Assembly: GCF_963975415.1 (NCBI RefSeq)
Contig: NZ_CAXBGN010000011.1
Coordinates: 67,410 to 131,409 of the forward strand
DNA from: an uncultured Kriegella sp.
GTDB taxonomy: Bacteria > Bacteroidota > Bacteroidia > Flavobacteriales > Flavobacteriaceae
DNA: 64,000 nt
Direction: 5' to 3'
Numbering within the stretch: position 1 is the stretch's first letter; each line of letters begins with the position of its first letter. The translations under genes were made by a program, and so were the position numbers. The notes under the pieces were generated by a model, which searched no databases, was not told the DNA's origin, and saw only the letters and a list, made by a program, of their open reading frames with translations. Positions 44,116-64,000 of this stretch are shown here, piece by piece.

Positions 44116-44928
44116 ATGAGAATAGTGATCACCACCGATTTTTCGCTCAACGCCCAGAAAGCCATAGACTATGCACTTTGGCTTTTTCGAGGAAGGGCAA
44201 CCAAGTTTTATATTCTTCACGCCTACCAAAATATACCTTCCTCACCTGAAAATAAAACAACCACCTACGAGAAATTAAAGGATTTGGTTAAAAGTTTAAA
44301 AGAAAAAAGTCAAAACCCCCAACACAGTTTTAAATCGGTATTGATAAGTGGATCTATTTTGTATGCCATTTCGGAAGCTGTCAAAGAAAAGCAGGCCGAT
44401 TTTGTTTTTATTGGTACCCAAGGTTCCTCTGCTTTAAAGGAAATATACATGGGAAGCAATGCGGTCAACGTCATCAAGAATATAGATTCATGCCCTGTAG
44501 TAGCCGTTCCCACAACATATGAAGTGAATGCAAATAGCAACGAAATTCTCTTTCCGAACGACCTTAACCATGCCTTTAGCCCAGAAGAACTGAAGCCCCT
44601 AATAAATATGGTAAAATTAAGTGATAGCACGCTGGCTGTCGTGTATTTCAGTGTGGGAAAAAAGTTTTCTGTCGAAGACAAACTGCGGAACAAAGAGTTA
44701 CTTGGGGACCATTTCAAAGAGATTAAATCAAATTTTATATATCTTAATATAGAAGATTCCATTTCGTCAGCTATAGTTAAAATGGAACAGGAGAATCAAA
44801 AAATACAGATGGTCGCCATGTTCCCCAATCCGCATGGCTTCCTTGAAAAATTAATGCGAGAACCTGTCATCCGAAATGTGGTCTTTAAAACGGAAGTCCC
44901 TTTTTTGGTTCTTCCAAAACTCAAATAA
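44116..44928 (+). CDS. Universal stress protein, tandem Usp domains
   Basis: 270 aa. Usp pattern: MRIVITTDFS start, ATP-type motif GTQGSSALKEIYMGS, VPFLVLP terminus. Confidence 0.85.
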   Translation: MRIVITTDFSLNAQKAIDYALWLFRGRATKFYILHAYQNIPSSPENKTTTYEKLKDLVKSLKEKSQNPQHSFKSVLISGSILYAISEAVKEKQADFVFIGTQGSSALKEIYMGSNAVNVIKNIDSCPVVAVPTTYEVNANSNEILFPNDLNHAFSPEELKPLINMVKLSDSTLAVVYFSVGKKFSVEDKLRNKELLGDHFKEIKSNFIYLNIEDSISSAIVKMEQENQKIQMVAMFPNPHGFLEKLMREPVIRNVVFKTEVPFLVLPKLK

Positions 44929-44945
44929 ACTAAAACTCAAGTATC

Positions 44946-45335
44946 ATGGACTATTATTTCAAAAAAGAGCTTCATAACATTGGTTTTGAGCAAGCTATTG
45001 CAAAAACAACGGAAGCTCTAAAAAAAGAAGGCTTCGGCGTATTGACCGAAATAGACATCAAAGCCACTTTAAAGAAAAAATTGGACGTTGATTTCCGCAA
45101 TTACAAAATTCTGGGTGCCTGTAATCCAGCATTTGCCTACAAGGCGCTCTTGGCCGAAGATACTATCGGCACCATGCTTCCCTGCAATGTCATCTTACAA
45201 GAAAAGAACACAGGTTCCATTGAAATTTCGGCAGTCGACCCAGCAGCTTCGATGCAGGCGGTAGCGAATGACAGTCTCAATGTTATTGCCGGCGAAGTAA
45301 GAGATAAGTTAAAAAGAATGATCGAGGGCCTTTGA
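44946..45335 (+). CDS. DUF302-domain protein
   Basis: 129 aa with DUF302-like sequence (GFGVLTEIDIKATLKKKLDVDFRNYKILGACNP). Confidence 0.7.
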   Translation: MDYYFKKELHNIGFEQAIAKTTEALKKEGFGVLTEIDIKATLKKKLDVDFRNYKILGACNPAFAYKALLAEDTIGTMLPCNVILQEKNTGSIEISAVDPAASMQAVANDSLNVIAGEVRDKLKRMIEGL

Positions 45336-45368
45336 GCGAAGCCGAAAGGGAAGAAATAAATCCTATAC

Positions 45369-46205
45369 ATGAAAAAAATACTCGTTCCCGTCGATTTTTC
45401 GGAGTATGCCGAGATGGCGTTAGAAGTCGCCGCTACCTTGGCAAAAAAATACAATGCCGAAATTGCGGTGCTACATATGCTTGGCCTGTCTGAAACAGCG
45501 GTTGCAAAAAATGAAGCTCAAGATTTTTTGGAAATGGAGTATTACATGAAGCTAGCAAAAAAGCGTTTCAATATGTTTTTGAACCGTCCTTGGTTAAAAG
45601 ACATCAAAATAACCCAAACGGTGCAGAACCATAAGGTTTTCAGAGAAATCAACAATGTAGCAAAAGAGCAGAATATTGATTTGATTGTGATGGGCTCACA
45701 TGGTTCTGAAGGTCTTGGTGAAATTTTCGTAGGATCACATACCGAAAAAGTAGTGCAATCTTCGGAAGTACCCGTTCTCGTCATCAAGAAAAGAACCAAG
45801 CATTTTAAAATCGACAAAATTGTTTTTGGCTTTGATTTTCGAATAGAGTATATAACTGCTTACCAAAATGCATTAAAGCTATTCAGTGCATTGGAACTTG
45901 ATGTACACATGGTTTATGTAAATCAACCGGGCATCAATTTTACCAGTACTTCCCAAACTAAGGCCCAAATCGATAGTTTTCTTAGAATTGCCCATCATGG
46001 CGACTTACCCGAAAACTTACAAATCGTTCAAATCTCCGATTATTCGGTAGAAAAGGGCATTTACGCCTACGCCGAAGAAGTCAAAGCCGACACCATAGCA
46101 ATTGCTACCCATGGTCGTAGCGGCTTGGCCCAATTCTTAAAAGGCAGTGTCGGGATGGATGTTGCCAATCATTCAAGTTTACCGGTACTCACATTTAAAA
46201 TATAA
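45369..46205 (+). CDS. Universal stress protein, tandem Usp domains
   Basis: 278 aa with MKKILVPVDFS, GSHGSEGLGEIFVGSHTEKV, VPVLVIK and a second domain with ATHGRSGLAQFLKGS. Confidence 0.9.
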   Translation: MKKILVPVDFSEYAEMALEVAATLAKKYNAEIAVLHMLGLSETAVAKNEAQDFLEMEYYMKLAKKRFNMFLNRPWLKDIKITQTVQNHKVFREINNVAKEQNIDLIVMGSHGSEGLGEIFVGSHTEKVVQSSEVPVLVIKKRTKHFKIDKIVFGFDFRIEYITAYQNALKLFSALELDVHMVYVNQPGINFTSTSQTKAQIDSFLRIAHHGDLPENLQIVQISDYSVEKGIYAYAEEVKADTIAIATHGRSGLAQFLKGSVGMDVANHSSLPVLTFKI

Positions 46206-46210
46206 GCCAG

Positions 46211-46408
46211 CTATTCTTTTGATGATTTCCCACCAAAAGTATTGAAGAGCAATCCGCCCATTACCCCTCCATAAAGGGTACTATTCAATGGTTTAGAAGT
46301 TATGGCACAAGTACCACTCATACAACCTATTTCAACATAGTATAGATAACCTGCAATGGCACCGATTGCGGCACCAATAATTGTTATGATAATAATTTTT
46401 GATGTCAT
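46211..46408 (-). CDS. Small membrane protein with a C-x5-C motif
   Basis: 65 aa counted from MTSK. It has two Gly-rich hydrophobic helices flanking GCMSGTC. The track's longer 98-aa version adds a Cys-rich non-hydrophobic leader, which is uncertain. Confidence 0.5.
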   Translation of the reverse strand: MTSKIIIITIIGAAIGAIAGYLYYVEIGCMSGTCAITSKPLNSTLYGGVMGGLLFNTFGGKSSKE

Positions 46409-46673
46409 TCTTTTCTCTTTCCGCCCGATATCATCGCAACTACGATTCCCACAAGGGCTATACACACTACTACAAAAACTCCAATTATTATGGTTCCGCT
46501 TTCCCAAGAAACTAAGGGAACAATTAGTTTATTATACATTCTCAGAGGGTCTAAAGGTTATCATATTTTTTTTACATGCAAGGGTAAAATGATTTATTTT
46601 ACTGAATTTCTTTTTTGTTCAAATTAAACCACGCTTTATTTGCGCTATTGGATTCCCAAAATACAGGTAATTT

Positions 46674-47663
46674 TCACTCATCAAATTTAATGGCCCAAAT
46701 ACCGCGCACCTCATTACTATCGTAACCGACGGCCATATCTTCGGGATAACGCTCTTTCAACATGGCCAAAGTTTCAATCCCAATTTCCTTCTCAGGTTTT
46801 CCGTGACATTGCAGGCACATGGCGTTAGTGGTAATCGGAAAATAAAAATCAACCTCCCCGTTGGCTACGTTAATTATGGGTTTGACCTCATCTTCAGATG
46901 CTACGATACGCTTAAACAATTCAATGTATCCCAATTCTTCCGTATTGGCCCTATTTTTGGCATTTCGGGGCTTATCGGAAACTCTTTTGATAATGGCATT
47001 TTTCATGACCGAGATGCTATCTGTCAATTTAAGCGCTTCAACATTGCAAAATGATACCGCCCCTACCGTTCCCCTGGTCTGAATGGCTTTCATTAGGTTT
47101 TTGCCCAATGTAGTTTTGGCGGTCAAGACATATTCCATTCCTATATCGGTGTAGTCGGTTTGATCGCCGTCAAACAACATACACTCGCAATCGGCCAATC
47201 CTTTTCCTTTTCTATGCGCTTTCTGAAAATGAGCATCCCACCAATCCGGTTTTTCAAGATCATTATCAAAAATATAATCGGCCACCTGTTTTAAAGCTTC
47301 ATCCGGATAAGGTAAATAAGGCATGGCTCCAAACCTTTTATGAACTCCGGGCATTCTTGTTTTTGTTTCTGGATCGTTCACCCAGCGAATCAAGTCTTCA
47401 GTGAAAGCTTCCCTTGTAGTACTCGAGTCGATATAATGCTGCTTTATAGCCACCATAGGCGGCGCAATCATACTGGATCGGGAAGTTTTTGGGTTATGGC
47501 ATATTTAACATTCGTTTTCTAAAAATTTCTTTCCAGGGTGTGACTTCGCAATTTCTGTCAGATGATTATCGGAAACCTTCCGAACCGGCTTTTTTTCAGT
47601 TTGCTTACCATCGTTACAGCCGACAAATATTATTGCGAAAACGAAGTAGATTAGAAACTTCAT
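46674..47663 (-). pseudogene. Lipoprotein di-heme c-type cytochrome / DUF3365-like heme sensor protein, interrupted by an in-frame TAA
   Basis: The ATG at 47663 (ATGA overlap with the upstream stop) gives a lipoprotein signal MKFLIYFVFAIIFVGC. The frame stays continuous to 46674 except for a TAA at 47505-47507, read as ENEC-stop-ICHNPKTSRSSMIAPPM. A second intact motif, CLQCH, lies near the C-terminus. Confidence 0.7.
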
Positions 47664-47932
47664 GATTTCGACAATTTTAAGGCAACGCCCCTTGTAAACG
47701 AAAAAGTTTTCTTAGAGGTGGAGCTTCTATAATGTATGGAAGGATATCCTATTGCCTTAAGCACTTCTTTCACCACCAAGGCATCATTAAAATTCTCATA
47801 CACAAAGGAAACCCTGGCCAAATCAACATCAACGGTTATATTTGAAATTGTCGGAAGCTCTGATAATTTTGAGATAATGGCCTTTTTACAAGCGCTACCC
47901 TTTAAGTTTTGAACGATAATCGAAGTTTTCAT
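47660..47932 (-). CDS. HMA-like (ferredoxin-fold, heavy-metal-associated-type) small protein lacking the CxxC motif
   Basis: 90 aa with a beta-alpha-beta-beta-alpha-beta pattern typical of HMA domains. GSAC replaces GMxCxxC. Confidence 0.45.
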   Translation of the reverse strand: MKTSIIVQNLKGSACKKAIISKLSELPTISNITVDVDLARVSFVYENFNDALVVKEVLKAIGYPSIHYRSSTSKKTFSFTRGVALKLSKS

Positions 47933-47957
47933 TTTTGTAGTTTCTATGGTACCGATT

Positions 47958-48003
47958 TAAAATTATGAGCTTAATAAATATTATGCTGTAACAACAGTTA
48001 CAG
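47958..48003 (-). promoter_or_regulatory. Operator CTGTAACAACAGTTACAG plus -7-like box (promoter of the HMA-like/heme-c operon)
   Basis: A perfect 7+4+7 palindrome spans 47986-48003 (centre 47994.5). On the minus strand, TAATTTTA has its first T at 47965, offset 29.5 nt. Confidence 0.6.
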
Positions 48004-48034
48004 TACTTAAAAAACAAGGTGTTTTTTTATTGTT

Positions 48035-48439
48035 TTACATTTCAAGAAGTAGGCGGAGCTTTGTCAAAAGATTCAATTCCAATGTATTTGCACTCCGAAA
48101 TGATAATGCAATATCGCATGCGGTCTTCCAAGTCAATTGTTTGATTTTTAAATTGAACTGTTGGGAGTGCTCCTTGTAAAAGGCCGCAAATTCTTCAAAG
48201 TAGTGTTGGCTTTCTTTTTCTTCTTGCTGCAACCAATCAAAAACAATGGCTATCTGATACGCTGCATCAGTACCATATTCGTCTTCCGCCCCATCGACTG
48301 AAAGCCAAAACGTATGCACATTTTTATTCAATTCGGCTACTTCTATCGGCCTTACCACTTTGTCTGCTATGGCGATGGCATAAAACAACTTTCCCAAGCT
48401 TTGGTAAAGTTCATTTGTTATTTTTTCTTTTGATATCAT
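48035..48439 (-). CDS. TerB-like (tellurite-resistance TerB/DjlA N-terminal type) helical protein
   Basis: 134 aa with a TerB-like N-terminus (LGKLFYAIAIADKVVRPIEVAEL). Confidence 0.45.
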   Translation of the reverse strand: MISKEKITNELYQSLGKLFYAIAIADKVVRPIEVAELNKNVHTFWLSVDGAEDEYGTDAAYQIAIVFDWLQQEEKESQHYFEEFAAFYKEHSQQFNLKIKQLTWKTACDIALSFRSANTLELNLLTKLRLLLEM

Positions 48440-48543
48440 CTTGATTCTTTTGATAAAACATCAGTCTGAAATTTGTTTTGTATCTCTTACAGCAGAACAG
48501 CCCCGTACTTAAACTCCATAGTTTGATCAGCCATTTCCGTTTT

Positions 48544-48981
48544 TCAATCCTTCAAATGACCTTGTAATTTTTCGCTGTCGATTACGTACTCGGTAATTTT
48601 AAAAAGCTGCACCCTATGCTGCCTTACCCTTTTAATGAATTCGGCCAATTCATCTTCAAGCTCTCCATGCTCCGTTCTAAAGCGCTTCGAATCATTATCG
48701 GTACTGTTTGCCAAATGGGACAGGTGTGCGTCTACCCTGCCCAAGAGTTCCTCACATTCTCTCGTAGCTTTCAAGATAGTTTCCCCAACCCTCCTTACAT
48801 CATCTAAATTGGCTTGGTCCTCAATCCATACAAAATATTTATCCACCAAATGACGTAGAAATCTAAGGTCATCTTTATAGAATAAAAGATCTGATTTCCA
48901 ATGCCCGGTCAAAATGTACAATTCTTGCCATTTACTGTTTTGAATGGAATTACTTTTTGGTCTACTTCTAAAACTTTCCAT
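48544..48981 (-). CDS. Small helical protein, member 1 of a three-paralogue family of unknown function
   Basis: It shares W-x-S-x-L-x-F-x2-D-[DE]-x2-F-[LI]-x2-L-x3-Y, L-x-R-[VI]-x-[AS]-H and a second invariant His with the genes at 57660 and 59613. The start is moved to the ATG at 48981 because the track's ATG at 49038 lies upstream of the predicted -7 box. Confidence 0.6.
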   Translation of the reverse strand: MESFRSRPKSNSIQNSKWQELYILTGHWKSDLLFYKDDLRFLRHLVDKYFVWIEDQANLDDVRRVGETILKATRECEELLGRVDAHLSHLANSTDNDSKRFRTEHGELEDELAEFIKRVRQHRVQLFKITEYVIDSEKLQGHLKD

Positions 48982-49017
48982 GGCTTCTTTATTTTGATTC
49001 AAAGTACCCTTTGTTCC

Positions 49018-49060
49018 CAAAAGTACTTTTGATTTCAAGCTTTTAGTATGATATTTGTCA
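49018..49060 (-). promoter_or_regulatory. TGAY-N4-RTCA box plus -7 element (promoter of paralogue 1)
   Basis: TGATATTTGTCA at 49049-49060 (centre 49054.5). On the minus strand, TACTTTTG has its first T at 49025, offset 29.5 nt. Confidence 0.7.
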
Positions 49061-49214
49061 TGTAAGGTCTATTTTTTTTATAGGGTGGCAAGATTGTTTT
49101 GCGATAAAAGCAAATTGATGCTATCTGTATTGAGAATACTGATGTCAAAAAACAAACCAGACGTTCATTTCAGTGTTTTCCCGACCAAGACAAACTTTAA
49201 AACACACCAATTAT

Positions 49215-50543
49215 ATGGCAGAGAACAATAATTTTGATATACAAACGATTGGTAACGCTACGATACCTTCTCCTATTCACCTAGACCAAATGACCGGTGA
49301 TAGTATTTATAAATTTATTGAGGAAAAAAATAGAATATTAAGCGATGTTACATTGCAAGGTTTCAATACATGCGTACAAAGTAACAAAGCTCCGGTTTGT
49401 CTTGAAAAAGCAGGTCCCCGAGAGCGCATATTTTTTAGACCTGAAAATACTACGGCGGCAATCGTAACCTGTGGGGGCCTTTGTCCTGGAATCAATAATG
49501 TGATACGCAGTCTTGTCATGGCGTTACATTATTTTTATGGGGTCAAAAGAATTATTGGAATACCCTACGGATACGAGGGGCTGTCACCGAAAAGCACCCA
49601 TGGTCTTACTGAACTTACCCCTGACGTAGTAAACGATATTCATGAGTTCGGTGGAACCGTGCTAGGTTCGTCGAGAGGTGCGCAACCCGTCTCTGAAATG
49701 GTTGATATGCTCGAAAACAATAAAGTCGATTTATTATTTGCCATAGGGGGCGATGGCACCTTAAAGGGGGCTAATGCAATTGGTGATGAAATTGAAAAAC
49801 GAAAACTGCCGATTTCGGTCATTGGAATACCAAAAACCATTGATAACGATATTGACCTTATTGACAAATCGTTCGGATTTGAAACAGCCTTTGACACTGC
49901 GGCGCCCATTATAAGAGATGCACATAACGAGGCAACCGGTGCCTATAACGGAGTGTCGATCGTAAAATTAATGGGAAGGGATAGTGGCTTTATCGCTGCC
50001 TCGGCCGCCATTTCAATGCCCGTAGTGAACTTTGTCTTGGTACCTGAAATGACTTTCGACCTATATGGACCCAATGGCTTTTTCGAAGCTCTCAAGAAAC
50101 GCCTCGACTTCAAACACCATGCCGTCATCGTCGTTGCAGAAGGAGCCGGACAGCACTTGTTTGAAAATGAAAAACAAATAACCGATGCATCGGGAAATGT
50201 GCAGCATAAAGATATTGGTTTGTTGCTAAAGGATAAAATAAAGGAATATTTCGACTCGCAGGCTATTAAAACTACGATCAAGTATATTGACCCGAGTTAT
50301 ATCATCAGGAGTTCCCCTGCCAATGCCAGCGACAGCGTTTTCTGTAATAGACTGGCATATCACGCCGTACATGGTGCAATGGCAGGGAAGACCAGATTTG
50401 TGGTAGGCATGGTCAACAATCAATTTGTGTATCTACCCATATCTAAAGTGGTATCCCAAAGAAAAAAGATAGATTTGGCGGGCGAATTTTGGTTTGCCGC
50501 GCTACAGAGCACAGGGCAACCCTTTTCAATGGTGCAAGCATAA
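49215..50543 (+). CDS. pfkA: ATP-dependent 6-phosphofructokinase (long-form clade)
   Basis: PFK motifs CGGLCPGINNVIR, GGDGTLKG, PKTIDNDI and MGRDSGF. GGDG rather than GGDD suggests ATP dependence. The start is placed at the ATG at 49215 (MAENNN). Confidence 0.85.
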   Translation: MAENNNFDIQTIGNATIPSPIHLDQMTGDSIYKFIEEKNRILSDVTLQGFNTCVQSNKAPVCLEKAGPRERIFFRPENTTAAIVTCGGLCPGINNVIRSLVMALHYFYGVKRIIGIPYGYEGLSPKSTHGLTELTPDVVNDIHEFGGTVLGSSRGAQPVSEMVDMLENNKVDLLFAIGGDGTLKGANAIGDEIEKRKLPISVIGIPKTIDNDIDLIDKSFGFETAFDTAAPIIRDAHNEATGAYNGVSIVKLMGRDSGFIAASAAISMPVVNFVLVPEMTFDLYGPNGFFEALKKRLDFKHHAVIVVAEGAGQHLFENEKQITDASGNVQHKDIGLLLKDKIKEYFDSQAIKTTIKYIDPSYIIRSSPANASDSVFCNRLAYHAVHGAMAGKTRFVVGMVNNQFVYLPISKVVSQRKKIDLAGEFWFAALQSTGQPFSMVQA

Positions 50544-50567
50544 AATTATCTAGGTTTGACCAAGCAT

Positions 50568-50601
50568 AAAAAACCCGACACTATACGAGTATCGGGTTTT
50601 T
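50568..50601. terminator. Bidirectional rho-independent terminator between convergent pfkA and pckA
   Basis: AAAAACCCGA / TCGGGTTTTT arms, with an A-run on one side and a T-run on the other. Confidence 0.75.
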
Positions 50602-50622
50602 ATATACAGTCAATCCATTAAT

Positions 50623-52260
50623 TTAAACATGATCGGCCAAGGCGTGGTGGGTATCTATTAAAGGCCCACCGTTGAGAATTTCTTCCGAAGCCTGATTGGC
50701 AAATTTATCAAAGTTTAGATGGAAGGAATGTGCCAATTGTATGGCCTTACTTACATACACTCCCTTTTGTAACCATGTGTTCATGGGATCTAATAATTCA
50801 GTGGGCACCCCTTGACAGTATTTGGGCATTTGCAAGCCAAATATAGGATGCTGATTGTAATCGACCTTTTCAAGTTCTCCTTTTAGAATTGCGGAAATCA
50901 TCGCCCTTGTATATTTCAATTTTATTCGGGAGCCAACTCCGTAAGGTCCGCCCGTCCAGCCAGTATTGATCAACCAAACGTTGACACCTGCTTCAGTCAT
51001 TTTTTTACTTAGCATTTCTGCATATACCGTTGGATGCAAAGGCATAAAAGGCTCTCCAAAACAAGCAGAGAACGATGGAACAGGTTCATTTATTCCGGCT
51101 TCGGTTCCAGCAACTTTGGCGGTATAGCCCGAAATAAAATGATAGGCCGCTTGACCAGGCGTTAATTTCGATACAGGGGGCAAGACTCCGAAAGCATCAC
51201 AGGTCAGAAAGAAAATGTTCTTCGGATTTTTGGCAAACGAAGGTACCTGAATATTATCGATATGATCAATCGGATAGCTCACCCGGGTATTCTGGGTTAT
51301 CGAACTATCGAAATAGTCCACCTCTTTTGTTCCCTCCCTAAAACCTACATTTTCTAAAAGTGCACCCGGTCGAATGGCACGGAAAATATCGGGTTCCTTG
51401 TCTTCTGTAAGGTCGATTACTTTGGCGTAACAACCTCCTTCAAAATTAAAAATGGTATTGTCAGATGCCCAACCATGCTCGTCATCTCCGATTAACTTTC
51501 GTTCGGGATCGGCAGACAACGTCGTTTTTCCCGTTCCCGATAGCCCAAAGAAAATAGCGGTATCTCCGTCTACACCAACATTGGCCGAGCAATGCATCGG
51601 CAGCACATTACGTTCTGTGGGTAAAATTAAGTTCAAGGCAGAAAAAATGCCCTTCTTCATTTCACCGGTATAGGCCGAACCTGCAATCAATGCAATTTTT
51701 TTTGTGAAATTGATAATGGAAAAGTTACCACTTCCAATACCGAACGATTTGGGCTCTTGGGCCACATAACCTGGTGCACATAGCACCAGCCATTCTTCGT
51801 CAAAATCTTCAAGTTCATCTTCGTTCAACCGAAGAAACATGTTTTTTATAAAATAATTAGACCACGGATATTCGGTAATCGTCCGCACGTTCATATGATA
51901 TTTTGGATCGGCGCAGACATAGGCATCGCGTACATAGACCTCCTTTCCCGATAGATACGTTATCACTTCAGTATGTAGCTTGTCGAAATTTTCGGGAGCC
52001 AATGGCTTATTGACACGACCCCACCATACTTTATCGCTGGTGTAATCATCTTTTACCAAAAAACGATCTTTGGGCGACCGTCCTGTGAACTTACCTGTAT
52101 TTACGCAGAGTGTACCGTTCGCTGTTTCGGTACCCATACCTTTTGCAACGGTCAATTTTTGAAGCGTCTCTCCATCAAGGTTCCAATGGGCAGTGACATT
52201 TTCCAATCCGTATTTTTGAAGGTCTTTATTCTTTGACGTTTTCGCTAATGTTTCTTCCAT
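50623..52260 (-). CDS. pckA: Phosphoenolpyruvate carboxykinase (ATP)
   Basis: 545 aa with the P-loop GLSGTGKTTLS, LIGDDEHGW and NTGWTGG motifs. Confidence 0.95.
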   Translation of the reverse strand: MEETLAKTSKNKDLQKYGLENVTAHWNLDGETLQKLTVAKGMGTETANGTLCVNTGKFTGRSPKDRFLVKDDYTSDKVWWGRVNKPLAPENFDKLHTEVITYLSGKEVYVRDAYVCADPKYHMNVRTITEYPWSNYFIKNMFLRLNEDELEDFDEEWLVLCAPGYVAQEPKSFGIGSGNFSIINFTKKIALIAGSAYTGEMKKGIFSALNLILPTERNVLPMHCSANVGVDGDTAIFFGLSGTGKTTLSADPERKLIGDDEHGWASDNTIFNFEGGCYAKVIDLTEDKEPDIFRAIRPGALLENVGFREGTKEVDYFDSSITQNTRVSYPIDHIDNIQVPSFAKNPKNIFFLTCDAFGVLPPVSKLTPGQAAYHFISGYTAKVAGTEAGINEPVPSFSACFGEPFMPLHPTVYAEMLSKKMTEAGVNVWLINTGWTGGPYGVGSRIKLKYTRAMISAILKGELEKVDYNQHPIFGLQMPKYCQGVPTELLDPMNTWLQKGVYVSKAIQLAHSFHLNFDKFANQASEEILNGGPLIDTHHALADHV

Positions 52261-56568: not shown

Positions 56569-56608
56569 CATTCGTCATAGAGTACGGTATCCCAAAGCCT
56601 TAATTTTA
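56566..56608 (+). promoter_or_regulatory. TGAY-N4-RTCA box plus -7 element (usp 56632)
   Basis: TGACATTCGTCA at 56566-56577 overlaps the upstream TGA stop (centre 56571.5). TAATTTTA at 56601-56608, offset 29.5 nt. Confidence 0.65.
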
Positions 56609-56631
56609 TACTATATCCTTAAAATTTCAAT

Positions 56632-57483: not shown

Positions 57484-57659
57484 ATTCATTGGTTCAAAAA
57501 AGGGCAAAAACTTAATTTCATCGCGTAGTGCCTACTTATTCAGGTATTCAGGGTCGGTAGCTTTATTAACATAATTTTTAACACCAAAACCGACTCAAGT
57601 AATTGCTTTTCATTAGTTTATGAATTAACTTCATAGGGAATCATAATGCAACACGGACT

Positions 57660-58085
57660 ATGAATAAAGACATTCGAACAAAATCAGACCAGGCACAAAA
57701 AACAGAAATATTTTACTATGACTGCCAAAACTGGAGGTCTAAGCTTTGGTTTATGGAAGATGAGACCATTTTCATAAATCGTTTGCTGACTTCCTATGTT
57801 TTTGAACCCAACACACCCGACCTGTTCGAACGTTTGCAAGAATATTTAAACCGACTAAAAAAATCGAAAACAACGAAGAGCCGAGTTCTTGAACGTATCA
57901 TCGCCCATGAAAAAAATCTCGGGGGTATGTTTGAATGTAAAGATCAGAGCTGCGACCTCGGTTTCGAACGAAAACACAAAACCATTGAGGCACAAGTTGT
58001 CGATTGTATCGAAAATTTTCAAACCCTAAAGACTGAAATATTCAATTATGCCGGATCCATCCTAAAAAAGAGAAAACCGTACTAA
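57660..58085 (+). CDS. Small helical protein, member 2 of the three-paralogue family
   Basis: 141 aa carrying the same conserved W/S/L/F/D/Y block and two invariant His as the genes at 48544 and 59613. Confidence 0.6.
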   Translation: MNKDIRTKSDQAQKTEIFYYDCQNWRSKLWFMEDETIFINRLLTSYVFEPNTPDLFERLQEYLNRLKKSKTTKSRVLERIIAHEKNLGGMFECKDQSCDLGFERKHKTIEAQVVDCIENFQTLKTEIFNYAGSILKKRKPY

Positions 58086-58120
58086 CTAAAGGTTTCCTAA
58101 TAAAAACCATGTTCACATCA

Positions 58121-58819
58121 TCACGCATGGTTAAGCATTTTTTCAAGTTCTTCGCTCTTACCACGACTAATAGGAATCTCCTTTCCACCAATTTCGAGCA
58201 TGGTCGTACAAAATTGGTCTATCTTGGTTACGTTTACACAATACGACCTATGAATTCTTATGAATTTATCTTTAGGCAATTTTTTTAGAAACGATTTTAG
58301 GGTCGTGAGTACCAGTAGGTTTCCATCGTCGGTCACCAGCCGAATATAATCTCCAATAGTCTCAATAAAATTGATGTGATCGATTACCACTTTCTTTTTT
58401 TGCAGATTACTTTTGACATCGATACAAACCTTATCCACGATTTTATTGATCATTCTGTGCTTTGAAAGTGCTCGCCGTACGGCGTTATCAAAACGTCCTT
58501 TATCCAAAGGTTTCTTCAGATAGTCGGTAATCGCATAATCAAAGGCTTTCAAAGCATAATCACCTTTATTACAAACCAGAATGACCTGCGGGGGGTGCTT
58601 TAAGGCTTCCAAAAACTCGAATCCGTTCATCCGTGGCATTTCGACATCTAAAAATATAAGGTCGATATCTTTATGAGCCTCATTGTTCAAGGCCTCCACT
58701 GCATTTCGATATGTGGCCACCAAGGCCAGATCTGAATGACTATTTATCAGTCTAGAAATGGCATGGCGCGAAACCGTAGAGTCATCGATTACAATACATT
58801 TTAAAGTTATACTATTCAT
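58121..58819 (-). CDS. LytTR-family response regulator
   Basis: 232 aa with receiver (VIDDS, LIFLDVEMPRMNG, KP) and LytTR signature (FIRIHRSYCVN). Confidence 0.9.
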   Translation of the reverse strand: MNSITLKCIVIDDSTVSRHAISRLINSHSDLALVATYRNAVEALNNEAHKDIDLIFLDVEMPRMNGFEFLEALKHPPQVILVCNKGDYALKAFDYAITDYLKKPLDKGRFDNAVRRALSKHRMINKIVDKVCIDVKSNLQKKKVVIDHINFIETIGDYIRLVTDDGNLLVLTTLKSFLKKLPKDKFIRIHRSYCVNVTKIDQFCTTMLEIGGKEIPISRGKSEELEKMLNHA

Positions 58820-58886
58820 ATCATATTAGATTACAAAGTTTGATTTTTCAACCTATGAACTCAGTATTTGGTTTATGAAAATCAAT

Positions 58887-58929
58887 CAAAACTAACCTGA
58901 AAGTCCCTCATAAACAATGATAAAAGTCA
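58887..58929 (-). promoter_or_regulatory. TGAY-N4-RTCA box plus -7 element (LytTR regulator)
   Basis: TGATAAAAGTCA at 58918-58929 (centre 58923.5). On the minus strand, a perfect TAGTTTTG has its first T at 58894, offset 29.5 nt. Confidence 0.7.
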
Positions 58930-58993
58930 GGTTAAGCCAGTTTTCGCGGGGCCTTTTGCCATCATGTTATTTCTTGTGCAAAAATCGATGAGC

Positions 58994-59036
58994 TGATAAT
59001 TGTCATTTCATTGCTGCTTCTTTCCTGCTAACTTAG
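58994..59036 (+). promoter_or_regulatory. TGAY-N4-RTCA box plus -7 element (hsp20)
   Basis: TGATAATTGTCA at 58994-59005 (centre 58999.5). TAACTTAG at 59029-59036, offset 29.5 nt. Confidence 0.6.
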
Positions 59037-59078
59037 TTTCACTTATAAAGTAATTAGTAATCTTAAAACCCAACAGTT

Positions 59079-59519
59079 ATGTCATTAGTTAAATTTAACA
59101 GCAACCGATGGCCTTGGAATTATGGCCTTACTGATTTCATTGAACGCAATACTGCCTTTAATGACAATTTCTTCAATCTTGAAAAATCGTTGCCTGCAAT
59201 GAACGTCATGGAACACGATAACGATTTTGAAATCGAACTGGCTTCACCTGGTTTCGATAAAAAAGATTTTGAAATCACCCTTAAAGATGACATTTTGGAA
59301 GTGGCCGCCGAAAAAAAGGCGAACCACGAAGATAAAGAAGATGACTACACCCGAAAGGAGTTCAACTATCGCTCCTTCAGGCGTGCGTTACAGTTACCCA
59401 AAACAGTCGACGATTCAAAAGAAGTAAAAGCAACTTATGAAAACGGAATTCTAAAATTACACCTATTTAAAAAAGCGGAAGCTAAAAAAACGAACAAAAG
59501 AAAAATCGATGTTTTGTGA
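59079..59519 (+). CDS. Hsp20/alpha-crystallin family small heat-shock protein
   Basis: 146 aa with an alpha-crystallin domain pattern (PAMNVMEHDNDFEIELASPGF.KKDFEI, GILKLHL). Confidence 0.9.
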   Translation: MSLVKFNSNRWPWNYGLTDFIERNTAFNDNFFNLEKSLPAMNVMEHDNDFEIELASPGFDKKDFEITLKDDILEVAAEKKANHEDKEDDYTRKEFNYRSFRRALQLPKTVDDSKEVKATYENGILKLHLFKKAEAKKTNKRKIDVL

Positions 59520-59525
59520 TTTGAT

Positions 59526-59561
59526 AGTATGGCATACGGTCGTATGACCGTATGCCATACT
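59526..59561 (+). terminator. Strong hairpin downstream of hsp20 (terminator or processing/attenuation element)
   Basis: Perfect 14-bp stem AGTATGGCATACGG (59526-59539) / CCGTATGCCATACT (59548-59561) with an 8-nt loop. Only a weak T-tract follows (TTGTTT). Confidence 0.55.
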
Positions 59562-59612
59562 TGTTTACATCGCTAGTAGATATTCTTTTTCCTTAAAAGT
59601 CATAAAAGTAAA

Positions 59613-60050
59613 ATGGAAGCAACTGGAAAAAATTACGGTTATATCGAGTGGCTAAGCGCCGAAGAAATGCATGATACAACCTTGCAATGGATATCGGAAT
59701 TGAAATTCGTTCGCGATGAACAACAATTTTTGAACGATTTGGTAACTTCTTACACTCCACAATTGTTAGATCAAAAAGTTTTCGAGGAAAGCCAAGGAAT
59801 CACAAGAGCAATTTCGAAATCGGAAAAAGAAGCCATAAAATATCTACAAAGGGTCAAATCACATGAAAATCTTTTGGAAATCATGATCAACGATATCGAT
59901 GAACTAAAAATGGAAAAGGCCTATATCGAAACCCATTGGGAGCTGGTATCTGAAATTAAAAAGTATATGAACGATTACCGTGAATTGAAGTCGGCACTAT
60001 TTCATCTGGTCGCCAAAGTCAAAAAAATGAACAAACGCCTTTTGAAGTGA
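59613..60050 (+). CDS. Small helical protein, member 3 of the three-paralogue family
   Basis: 145 aa with the same conserved blocks as the genes at 48544 and 57660. Confidence 0.6.
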   Translation: MEATGKNYGYIEWLSAEEMHDTTLQWISELKFVRDEQQFLNDLVTSYTPQLLDQKVFEESQGITRAISKSEKEAIKYLQRVKSHENLLEIMINDIDELKMEKAYIETHWELVSEIKKYMNDYRELKSALFHLVAKVKKMNKRLLK

Positions 60051-60052
60051 AG

Positions 60053-60095
60053 TGACGGGCATCCGTAGATATAACTTCTAAAAAACCTATTTTTG
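60053..60095 (+). promoter_or_regulatory. One-mismatch TGAY-N4-RTCA box plus -7 element (lipoprotein 60132)
   Basis: TGACGGGCATCC at 60053-60064, with the last base C instead of A (centre 60058.5). Perfect TATTTTTG at 60088-60095, offset 29.5 nt. Confidence 0.45.
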
Positions 60096-60131
60096 TCAGG
60101 GTATTCTAAGAAGGAATGGAAAACTCAAATT

Positions 60132-60773
60132 ATGAAAAAATTACTTGCTTTTGCAATTCTTATCTTTAGTGGATGTTCTAACACTTCATTGGTCGAAAGC
60201 TGGAAAAACCCTGACAACGTTATTTTCACCGCCTATAAAGTATTGGTTGTTGGCATGACCTATGACGAAGACGTACGTGCCGACTTTGAAACCAAATTAA
60301 AAAAAGAATTTGACAAAAGAAATGTTGAAGCTATGCGTAGCGTCGATTTATTCGATGTTTCGTTTACCGATTCAAGAAAATCGGAAGAAGAGCTCGACGA
60401 TGTTGAACGTCAACTTCTTGATAAGGACTTCGACGCCATTCTTTTCACCAAAATCGTAGGCTCCGAAGACCGCAAAACGTTTTTGAAGAGTATTGCCGAA
60501 TGGGGTAAATACAAAGGTGATTTTAGTGACGATTACATGTCCCATCAAGACATTTATTATAATTCGAACTACTACGAACCATTTACCGTTTATCATGCCG
60601 AAACCTCTTTATATTGTATTTGCGAAGGCAAAGAGCGCTCTTTGGTCTGGCGTGGCAGTATAGATATCACCGACCCTGAAAATATTGAGAAAACAATCGA
60701 TAAATATGTAAAATTAGTGGTCATGGCCATGGAGGAACAAGACCTAATATTCCGTAAAGACAGTGGCCATTAG
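60132..60773 (+). CDS. Hypothetical lipoprotein
   Basis: The start at MKKLLAFAILIFSGC gives a lipobox. The track's earlier start at 60093 lies inside the predicted promoter. Confidence 0.6.
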   Translation: MKKLLAFAILIFSGCSNTSLVESWKNPDNVIFTAYKVLVVGMTYDEDVRADFETKLKKEFDKRNVEAMRSVDLFDVSFTDSRKSEEELDDVERQLLDKDFDAILFTKIVGSEDRKTFLKSIAEWGKYKGDFSDDYMSHQDIYYNSNYYEPFTVYHAETSLYCICEGKERSLVWRGSIDITDPENIEKTIDKYVKLVVMAMEEQDLIFRKDSGH

Positions 60774-60804
60774 ATTGGGCACTAAAAAATGAAGCCCTCT
60801 TTTT

Positions 60805-61572
60805 TCATCTTTGGTGAAAGTGGGGGTTACTTTCCAAAGCTTTTTTTGTTGCAGCATAGCCCAATTCAAAAATGGCATCGATTCCGTATCTGCTGAAGGT
60901 ACCGAACTTTGTGAGTCCGTCGGGCTGTATCAACAAATCACATTCCGGAAACTTTTGTATCGATTCCGATGCCGCCTTGATCTTATAGGCGCGCTCCATA
61001 ACATTGTAAGAATGTTTTAAATCTGCAATCTTCAATTTCTGTAGAGGATTTACATAAACCCCAATAAGTGAATCGCATAGCGGCTTTAAGGGTTCTATAG
61101 GGAAATTGTTTAAAACGCCTCCATCGACATAATATGATTTGCCGATTTGAACCGGAGTAAAAACACCAGGAAAAGAAGCCGATGCTAAAACAGGATGGAT
61201 CAATGGTCCGGAATCAAAAATATGTAAAGTTCCCTTTTCAACATTCGTCGCGGTAACGAACAAGTGCTTTTTAAGAACCTTGAAATCATCCTCGGGAACA
61301 AATCTCTTAAAATCCGAATAGAATTTTTCGGTATCGATGAATCCCGGCTTTCCCAGGGCATATTTTTTAGCATGAAACAGGGGTATGCTCTTAAAAAAAT
61401 TCAATATTTCAGACCATTCGGCACCTGCGGCATACAATGCACCGACAATGGCCCCCGCACTCGTTCCTGAAACATGGGTCGGGAATATTCCGTTTTCTTC
61501 CAAGGCCTTAATAGCCCCAATGTGAGCCACTCCCCTCACGCCCCCTCCAGATAATACCAATCCTATAGTCAT
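60805..61572 (-). CDS. Patatin-like phospholipase
   Basis: 255 aa with an oxyanion GGGVRG, the nucleophile elbow GTSAG and a DGG motif (YVDGGVLNN). Confidence 0.9.
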   Translation of the reverse strand: MTIGLVLSGGGVRGVAHIGAIKALEENGIFPTHVSGTSAGAIVGALYAAGAEWSEILNFFKSIPLFHAKKYALGKPGFIDTEKFYSDFKRFVPEDDFKVLKKHLFVTATNVEKGTLHIFDSGPLIHPVLASASFPGVFTPVQIGKSYYVDGGVLNNFPIEPLKPLCDSLIGVYVNPLQKLKIADLKHSYNVMERAYKIKAASESIQKFPECDLLIQPDGLTKFGTFSRYGIDAIFELGYAATKKALESNPHFHQR

Positions 61573-61625
61573 ACCATGTTATCTTATTCTGAATTATTTT
61601 AATCAAAAGGCTACACTGGTTATCA

Positions 61626-62240
61626 TTATTTTTTGGCAATTATCTCAAAACTGGCCAACCCTCCATCGATAGTGGCCTTTTCCAAGGCCCCATCTTTATA
61701 GTAATAAATGTTCTCCTTTCCCTTTGAATTGATTTTTTTATAACCGTGATTTCCCAAGGGGATAATCGTATTGAATGTTCCATCTTGCTCTGAAAAACAA
61801 CTGCTGACATTTACAGGCTCTTCAAAATACAATAAAACGGTAGTAAAGTCGATAGGTTTTTGTAATACCTCTTTCTCCTTCCCGTTTTTAATCATCTGAT
61901 ACTCACTATTGCGCCATTCGGTAGAAGTTTCGGCATGTGGCCGGTCATTAATCATTATATTGACATCAGACTTTCTCAATTGACCATTTTCAAAAGAAAC
62001 ATCATAGGTATAATTCACGGTAATATTCCGAATGACCTTAGTCTTCACCGTCGTGGAACTGTGGTAATAATCTTGGGAATTTTTGTTGGTTTTGGTAGCC
62101 TTTAAGCTTCCGATAGTTTTCTCGTTCATAACGATATCGAAGTACAATGCGATATTCTCCGTATGCTTGACACCAGTCGTAAAAACTGCAAAATTTAATA
62201 GTATTAGCCGTATGATAAGATTCTGCAAATTCAATAACAA
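61626..62240 (-). CDS. Hypothetical secreted/anchored protein
   Basis: 204 aa with a hydrophobic N-terminus. No motif recognised. Confidence 0.45.
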   Translation of the reverse strand: MLLNLQNLIIRLILLNFAVFTTGVKHTENIALYFDIVMNEKTIGSLKATKTNKNSQDYYHSSTTVKTKVIRNITVNYTYDVSFENGQLRKSDVNIMINDRPHAETSTEWRNSEYQMIKNGKEKEVLQKPIDFTTVLLYFEEPVNVSSCFSEQDGTFNTIIPLGNHGYKKINSKGKENIYYYKDGALEKATIDGGLASFEIIAKK

Positions 62241-62295
62241 CTTTTAGGGTTTTAATCTGATTCAATAGCTTCATCGAAGCCCTTTAATTTACTCG

Positions 62296-62338
62296 CAAAG
62301 TACTATACTGATCAAGGAATAAACGATGATATGTGTCA
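62296..62338 (-). promoter_or_regulatory. TGAY-N4-RTCA box with an imperfect, off-by-one -7-like element (gene 62240)
   Basis: TGATATGTGTCA at 62327-62338. On the minus strand there is only TACTTTG (one spacer base short), offset 30.5 nt. Confidence 0.3.
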
Positions 62339-62401
62339 TACAAAGCTATACTATTAAAAGCTATTCCCATGGTTACATTGCACAAAATGAAGTTGAAAAA
62401 C

Positions 62402-62444
62402 TGACCGATGTCATATATTTTAGATAGAACAAGTTATAGTTTTG
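62402..62444 (+). promoter_or_regulatory. TGAY-N4-RTCA box plus -7 element (PNPOx-family gene)
   Basis: TGACCGATGTCA at 62402-62413 (centre 62407.5). Perfect TAGTTTTG at 62437-62444, offset 29.5 nt. Confidence 0.7.
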
Positions 62445-62466
62445 ATGACGAAATAAAGCGGGCACT

Positions 62467-62922
62467 ATGAGAAGAAATTTAGAGGAAAAAGAGAGTATTG
62501 AACTCCTTAAAAACAGTTACATCGGAAGTTTGGCCTATATAATGGGCGCTACCCCGTACATTGTACCTATCACCTACTATTATGATAGTGCTAACCATAC
62601 GATCACTGGTTATTCGGCTATCGGTCACAAGTTAGATGCCATGCGAAAAAACCCTTCAGTGGCCTTGGGCGTTAATCTAATTGATTCGGTAGCGAATTGG
62701 CAGTCTGTTCAAGTACATGGCACCTTCGAAGAGCTTGAAGGTATCGACGCAAAACAAACGTTGCACGAGTTTTCAGTGGGCGTAAAAGGCATCTTGAACC
62801 ATAACAAAAAAAACAAAGCCCGATTCATCAGTGAATTCTCGGCAAAAATTGAATCGGAAGCTCCCCCTGTTGTATTTCGTATCAAAATCGGAGATATCGT
62901 GGGAAAATTGCGCAAAAATTAG
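62467..62922 (+). CDS. Pyridoxamine 5'-phosphate oxidase-family (FMN-binding split-barrel, Nim-like) protein
   Basis: 151 aa with a split-barrel flavoprotein-like sequence (IGSLAYIMGATPYIVPITYYYD, WQSVQVHGTFEEL). Confidence 0.65.
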   Translation: MRRNLEEKESIELLKNSYIGSLAYIMGATPYIVPITYYYDSANHTITGYSAIGHKLDAMRKNPSVALGVNLIDSVANWQSVQVHGTFEELEGIDAKQTLHEFSVGVKGILNHNKKNKARFISEFSAKIESEAPPVVFRIKIGDIVGKLRKN

Positions 62923-63032
62923 AAAACAGTCAAAATCGAAGGTTCCATTTTACAATAATGTATACCCTGAACAGACCAGCATTAATCTTAAAAATCGATA
63001 AAAAGTTTGGTACACCGTATCTGTACTAAACT

Positions 63033-63067
63033 AACAGGGGGCCTATGCTTCCTGTTTCTGTTTTTTT
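63033..63067 (+). terminator. Possible rho-independent terminator
   Basis: AACAGG (63033-63038) / CCTGTT (63051-63056) stem, followed by TCTGTTTTTTT. Confidence 0.45.
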
Positions 63068-63125
63068 AGACCTGCGCCAAAACGGCACAAAAAACCATAA
63101 ATTTAGAGGAAGGAAACATATTCTT

Positions 63126-64000
63126 ATGAGCAAAGCATTATATATCGCCACTACCGAACCCAATAGTGGCAAATCGATCATTTCACTGGGAATGATGCAA
63201 CTACTATTGGGGAAAACCGCAAAAGTGGGCTATTTCAGGCCTATAATCGATGATTTTAAAGACGCTTCCATCGACAACCACATCAATACGGTGTTGACCC
63301 ATTTTGAGGTCGACCTTGAGTTCGAAGAAGCCTATGCCTATACTCGAAGTCAGGTCGTTCAACTTAAGAATTTGGACAAGGATGATGAAATTTTGAGCCA
63401 TATCATTCATACCTACAAGGCCATCGAAGAACGGTTCGATTTTGTTTTGGTGGAAGGAACCGACTTTTCGGGCGAAGGTGCCATCATCGAATGGGATATC
63501 AATGTGCTTATCGCAAAAAATCTAGGTATTCCTGCGGTTATAATTGCCAGTGGAACTGGCAAGACCTTGAACGAATTGGTCGGAAACCTATATATGGCCT
63601 ATGATTCTTTTAAGGAAAAAGGGGTCGAAGTTTTGATGGCCGTAGCCAATAAAGTGCAGCCTGAAAATGTAGACCTTGTAATTTCAGGACTCCAAAAAAA
63701 ATTGCCTGCCAAAATATTGATCGGAGTTATTCCATTAAATCAGGTGTTGGGAAGCCCAACCATAAAAGAAATTGCCAAAGAACTCGATGCTGAAGTACTG
63801 TTCGGTTCCGAATTTTTAAACAATCAGGTCGAGGCGTTCAGTGTAGGTGCCATGCAATTACGCAACTATATTACCCATTTAAAAAAAGACAGCTTGGTCA
63901 TCACTCCTGGCGATCGGGCCGATATTATTTTGGGTGCTTTACAGGCGAATATCTCTTCCAACTACCCCAATCTATCCGGTATCGTGCTTACGGGAGGACT
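63126..64000 (+). CDS. pta: Phosphate acetyltransferase, long form, N-terminal part (3' end outside window)
   Basis: This ORF is absent from the ORF track because it runs off the window. My translation from the ATG at 63126 is MSKALYIATTEPNSGKSIISLG...VITPGDRADIILGAL. That matches the Pta N-terminal P-loop-like/DRTGG region. Confidence 0.8.
   Translation, partial: MSKALYIATTEPNSGKSIISLGMMQLLLGKTAKVGYFRPIIDDFKDASIDNHINTVLTHFEVDLEFEEAYAYTRSQVVQLKNLDKDDEILSHIIHTYKAIEERFDFVLVEGTDFSGEGAIIEWDINVLIAKNLGIPAVIIASGTGKTLNELVGNLYMAYDSFKEKGVEVLMAVANKVQPENVDLVISGLQKKLPAKILIGVIPLNQVLGSPTIKEIAKELDAEVLFGSEFLNNQVEAFSVGAMQLRNYITHLKKDSLVITPGDRADIILGALQANISSNYPNLSGIVLTGG

Follow-up and report, generated by a model that had tools for sequence, protein, structure and literature searches.

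A 64-kb stretch of DNA from an uncultured Kriegella sp. (Flavobacteriaceae), part of a Tara Oceans scaffold and called the window below, carries an array of six genes for tandem universal stress proteins (USP1 to USP6, numbered along the window), interleaved with genes for a small heat-shock protein (Hsp20), a thioredoxin (Trx), a PNPOx-like flavoprotein and other proteins. The region from 43.99 to 64 kb, together with a few kb past the window end, is probably the main chromosomal cluster of a stress-survival regulon activated by a Crp/Fnr-type protein. The best reading of this regulon, which we also rate as fairly likely, is a programme of persistence under low oxygen or energy limitation, whose signal we infer; for the Kriegella stress-protein array, a low-oxygen survival programme that has so far gone unstudied is most likely. 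Flavobacteriaceae play a leading part in the breakdown of algal polysaccharides on marine particles and in sediments, where oxygen fluctuates, and are commonly regarded as strict aerobes; we know of nothing on their persistence without oxygen.

The evidence that carries this interpretation is a promoter design common to about ten promoters of the cluster, in which a 12-bp palindrome, (A/C)TGAY-N4-RTCAT, is combined with a Bacteroidetes -7 box, TAnnTTTG; nine operators lie exactly 23 nt 5' of such a box. The palindrome TGAYANNNGTCA was matched 10 times in the 64 kb, with 0.81 matches expected and none of 100 shuffled sequences reaching 10, and every copy falls within 43991–62413. The composite TGA-N6-TCA-N23-TAnnTTWR was matched 9 times in the window against 0.09 expected, always within 43991–62444. 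A position weight matrix (PWM) scan of the other 44 kb of the window gave no site of comparable score, and one further operator stands just past the window end, before a gene for a P-type cation ATPase. An initial reading made from the letters of this DNA alone (the sequence-only reading) had proposed a Crp/Fnr-type site, and this is supported by the TGA-N6-TCA core and its fixed, class-II-like distance from the core promoter. A scan for sigma-70 promoters, uninformative for Bacteroidetes, found 57 against 55.5 expected. The operators and the genes that they face are as follows.

Operator 1, 43991–44002 (cTGACAAATATCAt): -7 box TAATTTTG 23 nt downstream, forward strand; promoter of the putative USP1-DUF302-USP2 operon; PWM score 21.2.
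Operator 2, 49049–49060: -7 box TACTTTTG 23 nt away, reverse strand; promoter of X164.
Operator 3, 53132–53143 (ATGACAATAGTCAT), bidirectional: TAATTTTG at 23 nt, reverse strand (USP3), and TACTATTG at 23 nt, forward strand (ROK).
Operator 4, 54327–54338: -7 box TAACTTTG; promoter of USP4.
Operator 5, 55672–55683, between Trx and USP5: TATTTTTA at 23 nt, forward strand (USP5), and a weaker TACCTTGT, reverse strand (Trx); PWM score 23.9.
Operator 6, 56566–56577, overlapping the USP5 stop codon: -7 box TAATTTTA; promoter of USP6.
Operator 7, 58918–58929: TAGTTTTG at 23 nt, reverse strand; promoter of the LytTR gene.
Operator 8, 58994–59005: -7 box TAACTTAG, forward strand; promoter of Hsp20.
Operator 9, 62327–62338, weaker: box GTACTTTG; faces the DUF6134 and patatin genes; PWM score 12.1.
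Operator 10, 62402–62413: -7 box TAGTTTTG; promoter of the PNPOx-like gene.

By their orientation, these promoters serve USP1 (and from there DUF302 and USP2), X164, USP3 (possibly with the PEP carboxykinase gene, PEPCK), USP4, USP5, USP6, LytTR, Hsp20 and the PNPOx-like gene, and weaker boxes at the sites starting at 53132 and 55672 face the ROK and Trx genes. Operator 2 is assigned to X164 because its -7 box, TACTTTTG, is on the reverse strand and none faces the neighbouring phosphofructokinase gene, pfkA. The claim that most promoters of this region share one operator is roughly right: 9–11 transcription units have it, and before pfkA, pta, the HMA and Tll0287-like genes and the patatin gene the PWM scan found no operator or a weak one only (62327). 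Measured from the expected transcription start, the centre of the palindrome would lie about 42 nt upstream and the operator would abut a -33 TTG, an arrangement that corresponds to class II Crp/Fnr geometry.

The same design recurs in related genera. A genome-collection scan with an alignment of relatives of X145, the founding member of a small protein family treated below, gave 80 related loci (1.44 Mb) from Kriegella, Maribacter, Eudoraea, Flagellimonas, Ulvibacterium, Arenibacter, Sediminicola, Saonia, Spongiimicrobium and others. At least three USP genes precede X145 in 55 of the 80, and the recurrent gene order, with arrowheads for the direction of transcription and brackets for genes that are not always present, is USP4 > Trx < USP x2-4 > X141 > [LytTR <] [Hsp20 >] X145 > lipoprotein. 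When spacings of 10 to 39 nt were scanned across these loci, TAnnTTTG followed TGAY-N4-RTCA after 23 nt in 100 cases, against 0–6 at the other spacings; composite promoters numbered 330 in the 1.44 Mb, against 0–6 in shuffles. The site consensus there is a-n-(A/C)-TGA-Y-n-w-a-w-R-TCA-T-k-k, in which the T after TCA is 98% conserved and, with the following T/G-G/T, can make up the -33 TTG, which then stands some 20 nt from the -7 box. Kriegella aquimaris keeps orthologous operator sites.

Behind these composite promoters lie genes for USPs (148), the X family (79), Hsp20 (17), Trx (13), HMA (7), LytTR (5), ROK (5) and PNPOx-like proteins (4), as well as for the ribosome hibernation factor HPF (Ribosomal_S30AE), a CbpA-like DnaJ, a PLD/cardiolipin-synthase-like protein, DoxX, baeRF and a glyoxalase, HPF being found in this position also in a second locus of a Kriegella metagenome-assembled genome (MAG). 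That HPF, the CbpA-like DnaJ and the cardiolipin-synthase-like gene share the promoter in relatives would fit a regulon with a flavour of dormancy. The linkage PFK-PEPCK-USP3-ROK occurs in both Kriegella loci; PFK lies nearby in only two other loci, and PEPCK in none. The comparative check that the sequence-only reading had itself proposed thus finds the core of the cluster syntenic in many genera and conserved beyond this strain. The word "island", which that reading had used, does not apply in the sense of a mobile element: a horizontally acquired genomic island was ruled out by a GC content (0.37–0.43) equal to that of the rest of the window, by the lack of any integrase, transposase or other mobility gene among those seen, and by the synteny of the core array in at least ten genera.

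A candidate for the activator is found in the relatives. In 36 of the 80 loci a gene for a protein of about 350 residues that joins a receiver domain to a Crp/Fnr module (Response_reg + cNMP_binding + HTH_Crp_2; REC-Crp hereafter), lies immediately 5' of the USP4 ortholog. The C-terminal 210 residues align over their full length with solved Crp/Fnr proteins (GlxR, FNR, CAP, DNR and FixK2, E down to 1e-16), and the receiver, as read from its sequence, has the usual acidic pocket and phospho-acceptor Asp. The Cys-rich N-terminus of FNR proper is absent from the REC-Crp proteins, which have the receiver domain in its place, and so is an output domain of the FixJ/NarL/DosR type, the output being cNMP_binding+HTH_Crp_2; the window open reading frames (ORFs) scanned include none for a GerE-type regulator. 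A literature search, in a body of literature that is incomplete, returned no account of such a regulon or of REC-Crp regulators in Flavobacteriaceae. As a side observation, three Flagellimonas loci (L051, L066 and L076) hold a second, divergent REC-Crp paralogue of 360 residues, about 30% identical in the Crp module, which has its own PAS kinase and stands divergently to Hsp20-X141-X145.

A gene for a PAS histidine kinase lies directly upstream of REC-Crp in 25 of the 36 loci, and in the remaining ones that were checked the edge of the locus cuts the upstream DNA. Significant matches of its PAS domain in the PDB were haem-PAS oxygen sensors only (DosP, 1e-14; FixL, 3e-12). The His aligned with what we take to be the proximal haem ligand of DosP is kept in 13 of 15 kinases, and the Arg aligned with its distal Arg, which presumably contacts oxygen, in 12 of 15. 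Since the kinase PAS domain resembles those of the haem oxygen sensors FixL and DosP, the signal is likely to be falling oxygen, or NO or CO.

Taken together, these components would form the following chain of events. A cytoplasmic PAS kinase would be activated by falling oxygen, or by NO or CO, and would phosphorylate REC-Crp; a dimer of this Crp/Fnr-family protein would then bind the palindrome and recruit RNA polymerase as a class II activator. The units switched on would be the six tandem USPs, Hsp20, thioredoxin (from a weaker box), the PNPOx/Nim-like flavoprotein, LytTR, ROK (again from a weaker box) and X164, with PEPCK probably reached by read-through from USP3, and X141 and X145, which lack intact operators of their own in this genome, reachable by read-through only. 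The outcome would be a state of persistence or hibernation that keeps cells viable under limitation of oxygen or energy. A wider proposal, to which we give somewhat less than even credence, is that this constitutes a previously undescribed two-protein oxygen or gas pathway of marine Flavobacteriaceae, leading from a FixL/DosP-like haem-PAS kinase through a receiver-Crp fusion and promoters of fixed geometry to a hibernation set (tandem USPs, small heat-shock protein, HPF, Trx and the three-helix family), and that it lets nominally aerobic flavobacteria associated with particles or sediments outlive anoxic microniches.

Several points weigh against this interpretation. Neither the window nor the 9 kb past its end yielded a Crp/Fnr gene with Pfam on essentially all ORFs of at least 100 residues or by tblastn with REC-Crp and with a 229-residue Crp protein described below, and no FixL-like PAS domain was found in the same DNA with Pfam or by tblastn with the PAS kinase. 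The tblastn searches with regulator and kinase queries gave receiver or kinase-core matches only in the window, among them a protein of 1385 residues that was rejected as the regulator and proved to be a hybrid two-component regulator of a polysaccharide-utilisation locus. Haem binding by the kinase PAS domain is predicted from a sequence similarity of about 25–30%, and the class II position assumes a transcription start about 7 nt after TAnnTTTG, taken from published Bacteroidetes promoter geometry. The pfkA, pta-ackA, patatin, HMA and Tll0287-like genes have no convincing sites, and a fermentative module is thus not demonstrated; USPs, small heat-shock proteins and HPF are, moreover, markers of general stress and stationary phase and not specific to hypoxia. 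Protein searches for a Kriegella REC-Crp returned copies from Sediminicola and from MAGs and none from Kriegella. Sediminicola carries the kinase and REC-Crp genes on a contig apart from the X145 locus, together with a USP gene (74% identity to USP4 of the window) and, 3' of the REC-Crp and USP genes, a lipoprotein homologue. An unlinked regulator therefore has a precedent, and the Kriegella genes for kinase and regulator would, as there, lie outside the window. Of the dormancy or hypoxia programme that the sequence-only reading had suggested, the core is thus backed by the Crp/Fnr-type wiring, its conservation and the haem-PAS-like kinase and REC-Crp of relatives, while the peripheral genes pfkA and pta(-ackA) lack a convincing operator.

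A further point against REC-Crp as the binder comes from another species (locus L085, Tara scaffold_312), where at 1019–2907 a 229-residue Crp/Fnr protein with an N-terminal CxxC and a USP of 300 residues, each behind a composite promoter, adjoin a ccoI/fixI-type copper ATPase; the arrangement points to a FixK-like second tier or to autoregulation, and a protein of this kind, being behind the same promoter type, could itself be the binder. The operator would then be bound by a one-component, FNR-like protein of about 229 residues whose cysteines might hold an Fe-S cluster, REC-Crp being a mere member of the regulon or an upstream step of a cascade resembling FixLJ-to-FixK. We regard this as unlikely. 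The cNMP_binding+HTH_Crp_2 architecture of the 229-residue protein, its C5-x2-C8 and a recognition helix (TESCIR) resembling that of REC-Crp (TETLIR) speak for it, as does the fact that Kriegella retains the sites though a REC-Crp gene does not head its array; its gene, however, was found in one locus only, unlinked to arrays, against 36 of 80 loci with a linked REC-Crp, and four-Cys Fe-S ligation is not established for it. Slightly less probable still is a general regulon of stationary phase, energy starvation or redox stress for which oxygen is not the specific cue, the PAS domain responding to a different ligand or to the redox state, or a metabolite being bound by the cNMP-like domain. Its members (USPs, Hsp20, Trx, HPF, the CbpA-like DnaJ and the cardiolipin-synthase-like protein) are classical stationary-phase proteins, the likeness of the PAS domain to FixL and DosP is only moderate, and 2–3 of 15 kinases lack the key His or Arg; yet the top PDB matches of that domain are exclusively haem oxygen sensors, and the nearest analogues that have been studied, which share motif and parts (the lxa locus and the Anr-dependent USP genes, compared below), respond to low oxygen. 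That a Crp-type protein acts as a repressor, blocking the -33 region until stress derepresses the genes, would fit an operator that abuts or overlaps the presumed -33 TTG, and is nevertheless very improbable: a spacing of strictly 23 nt to the -7 box, as seen in about 100 promoters, is typical of contact between activator and polymerase and would not be needed for simple occlusion, and Crp/Fnr sites near -41.5 are classically activating.

Turning to the genes of the cluster, the six USPs are located as follows.

USP1, 44116–44928, forward strand: tandem USP; Usp match in Pfam, N-terminal ATP motif GTQGSSALKEIYMGS.
USP2, 45369–46205, forward strand: tandem USP; two clear Usp stretches and the ATP motif.
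USP3, 52288–53073, reverse strand: tandem USP; Usp match in Pfam, without the strict ATP motif.
USP4, 54395–55234, forward strand: Usp match in Pfam and ATP motif; the gene with the Sediminicola copy mentioned above.
USP5, 55732–56568, forward strand: tandem USP; Usp match in Pfam and ATP motif.
USP6, 56632–57483, forward strand: tandem USP; Usp match in Pfam and ATP motif.

All six (261–283 residues) match PF00582 with 67–154 bits, against a cut-off of 24, and E values from 3e-18 to 6e-45, in agreement with the six two-domain USPs that had been claimed. Their C-terminal halves are degenerate second Usp domains: two Pfam stretches are visible in USP2 and USP3, and the isolated C-terminal halves of the other four matched Usp with E values of 4e-5 (USP4), 5e-3 (USP6), 0.05 (USP5) and 0.3 (USP1). 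The ATP-type motif attributed to the array, G-x2-G-x9-G[ST], is present in its strict form in five of the six N-terminal domains (USP1, 2, 4, 5 and 6), which would place these proteins in the predicted ATP-binding subclass (UspFG / MJ0577-like); among the six window USPs scanned, it was found neither in USP3 nor in any C-terminal domain.

Three window ORFs without a Pfam match are paralogues of each other (BLASTP E about 1e-10). With their relatives, here called the X family, they rank second in frequency among the operator's targets in related genomes; they are listed with the gene that follows X145.

X164, 48544–48981, reverse strand: three-helix family; start corrected to the ATG at 48981; behind operator 2.
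X141, 57660–58085, forward strand: three-helix family; its own operator is decayed here.
X145, 59613–60050, forward strand: founding member and query of the family search.
Lipoprotein-like partner of X145, 60132–60773, forward strand: no Pfam match; signal peptide ending in ...FSGC.

Members of the family have about 140 residues, with an invariant EWLS..MH, a W, SE..F..E..FL and two later His. They matched nothing in Pfam or NCBIfam and nothing in Foldseek at E<=0.001, and a PDB profile search gave designed coiled coils only; a hemerythrin-like function, once considered, was dropped. An AlphaFold model predicts three long helices (pLDDT 77). In related genera, X141 and X145 carry composite promoters of their own, and intact ones are absent from the Kriegella window. 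The operator that stands 5' of X141 in other genera is decayed here (CGACTCAAGTAA, within 57600–57659) and has one mismatch in Kriegella aquimaris (GGACCCAAATCA); expression of X141 may by now rest on read-through from USP6. The lipoprotein-like gene stands behind X145 in all but a few of the 80 related loci.

Interleaved among the USP genes, Pfam and NCBIfam identified DUF302, DUF6132, Tll0287-like, HMA, ATP-PFK, PEPCK-ATP, ROK, thioredoxin, LytTR, Hsp20, patatin, DUF6134, Pyridox_ox_2 and the N-terminus of Pta, so that the parts list of the sequence-only reading (Hsp20, thioredoxin, DUF302, a split-barrel flavoprotein, pfkA, pckA, ROK, pta, LytTR and patatin) is upheld, with the ROK protein scoring below the glucokinase cut-off. 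Those with a bearing on the regulon are the following.

DUF302 protein, 44946–45335, forward strand: 17 nt 3' of USP1.
ATP-dependent 6-phosphofructokinase (pfkA), 49215–50543, forward strand: NF005301 equivalog, 669 bits.
PEP carboxykinase (ATP), 50623–52260, reverse strand: Pfam; 27 nt downstream of USP3.
ROK-family sugar kinase, 53208–54164, forward strand: start corrected; below the glucokinase cut-off.
Thioredoxin, 55319–55618, reverse strand: Pfam; 99 residues from the corrected start.
Orphan LytTR response regulator, 58121–58819, reverse strand: Pfam; own Crp-type promoter.
Hsp20 / alpha-crystallin small heat-shock protein, 59079–59519, forward strand: Pfam.
Pyridox_ox_2 split-barrel (PNPOx-like) flavoprotein, 62467–62922, forward strand: weak Nim-like similarity.
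Phosphate acetyltransferase (pta), 63126–64000, forward strand, cut by the window end: AAA_26+DRTGG N-terminus.

The DUF302 gene probably shares an operon with USP1, and co-transcription of PEPCK with USP3 is possible because the two are 27 nt apart on the same strand. The LytTR regulator is a member of the regulon and not its master regulator. The pfkA gene adjoins the cluster, and its membership has no promoter support; nor is that of pta, which is followed by ackA just past the window end, supported, since a terminator-like hairpin with a T-run (63033–63056) separates it from the PNPOx-like gene and an operator is absent. Another hairpin, with a perfect 16-bp stem (59526–59561), lies directly 3' of Hsp20, and the two probably bound transcription units. 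A fermentative arm composed of Glk, PFK, PEPCK and Pta-AckA would plausibly fit succinate/acetate fermentation of the Bacteroidota type, with promoter evidence within it for ROK and perhaps PEPCK only.

Between the DUF6132 and HMA genes, a Tll0287-like protein with the c-type haem motif CxxCH (CLQCH) is encoded on the reverse strand (46674–47471), and no operator was detected before its gene. Perfect palindromes of the form GTAAC-N4-GTTAC stand at 37118–37131 and 47987–48002 (the 16-mer TGTAACAACAGTTACA is expected 0.02 times), one 5' of a small ORF, a CzcA/OEP-fusion RND pump and HlyD (37125–43147), the other 5' of the HMA gene (47660–47932). They were considered as a site of the HcpR/NO type, which was dropped, as the palindrome also precedes the Czc-like efflux operon and so looks metal-related and separate; it may be a distinct metal-responsive operator.

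Elsewhere in the window, a signalling cluster of the NO-sensing type occupies 24487–30721 on the reverse strand and comprises an H-NOX protein (29699–30244), a histidine kinase with three PAS domains (27724–29724), a FIST protein, a second kinase, an ORF of 106 residues, a LytTR regulator (24487–25197) and a stand-alone receiver (30320–30721). Between this LytTR regulator and the orphan one inside the USP cluster, itself behind a Crp-type promoter, identity is 32% (E 8e-43), and the H-NOX cluster and the USP regulon may be linked. Positions 1–24300 and 31082–34598 hold a polysaccharide-utilisation context (SusC/SusD, an FG-GAP/ASPIC protein, the hybrid two-component AraC regulator of 1385 residues, glycosyltransferases, GH5-like and GH88-like enzymes and a PA14-domain sulfatase) that is typical of an alga-degrading marine flavobacterium.

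The cluster offers a sharply defined and readily testable regulon, recognisable by a 12-bp operator whose distance to the -7 box does not vary, with about 10 such promoters here and hundreds in related genera, and relatives make available a candidate sensor-regulator pair of unusual architecture, in which a receiver domain and a Crp/Fnr module are fused. If our interpretation is true, the theme of hypoxic persistence with USPs and alpha-crystallin reaches beyond Actinobacteria and Proteobacteria into Bacteroidota, and a new class of response-regulator output with a known target motif is added. An uncharacterised and strongly conserved family of helical proteins and its lipoprotein partner are also flagged as core members of the regulon.

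Among known systems, the DosR (DevR) regulon of Mycobacterium tuberculosis, to which the sequence-only reading had compared the cluster, overlaps with it in its parts list (many USPs, alpha-crystallin, PFK and nitroreductase/flavoprotein-like proteins) and has a haem-based gas-sensing kinase. DosR, however, is of the NarL/LuxR type and recognises another DNA motif, DosS and DosT use a GAF-haem domain, and no such proteins are present among the window ORFs scanned; the resemblance is one of analogy only, and the lxa locus and the Anr-dependent USP genes of Pseudomonas are closer. The rhizobial FixL-FixJ-FixK cascade is similar in that a haem-PAS kinase ultimately drives a Crp/Fnr-family protein on boxes of the TGA-N6-TCA type, and USP and small heat-shock protein genes are microaerobic targets in rhizobia. 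FixJ, in contrast, acts through a LuxR-type output domain and turns on fixK as a separate gene, whereas in flavobacteria the receiver is fused to the Crp module and the cascade collapsed into two proteins; the flank preference also differs, being (A/C)TGA in the flavobacterial sites and not TTGA.

In Pseudomonas aeruginosa, ackA-pta and Anr-dependent USPs serve anaerobic long-term survival. The likeness to the Kriegella cluster lies in USPs behind Crp/Fnr-type boxes with a TGA-N6-TCA motif; Anr, unlike REC-Crp, is a one-component Fe-S FNR protein with dispersed genes, and in Kriegella pta-ackA has no detectable box. As far as the work cited within PMC3721108 goes, tandem and single USPs of that species are expressed in an Anr-dependent manner from such boxes under oxygen limitation, together with the acetate fermentation genes ackA-pta.

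The lxa locus of Burkholderia cenocepacia, a host described as an aerobe, is induced by low oxygen and required for survival under anoxia (Sass et al. 2013, PMC3721108). It contains six USPs, an alpha-crystallin/Hsp20, a flavin or nitro-reductase-type protein, ackA, a phosphotransacetylase-like gene, a "PFK" and a cation ATPase, with the motif TGA-N6-TCA, and a PEPCK gene elsewhere in the genome is also induced by low oxygen (PMC3721108). Six USPs, Hsp20, ackA/pta-type genes, PFK and TGA-N6-TCA are thus shared with the Kriegella cluster, and the cation ATPase has a counterpart in the operator-preceded P-type cation ATPase just past the window end; this likeness is one of parts list and motif only, the two belonging to different phyla with no orthology or synteny demonstrated between them. 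The PFK of lxa is ribokinase-like, whereas that of Kriegella is a true ATP-PFK with no clear operator, and lxa has RNR, PHA and alcohol dehydrogenase genes that the Kriegella cluster does not have. The Kriegella promoters, furthermore, use the Bacteroidetes -7 box, and their likely regulator is a REC-Crp hybrid, as opposed to an Anr/Fnr-type protein. With these differences, the lxa locus may be regarded, by analogy, as the closest studied counterpart of the Kriegella cluster.

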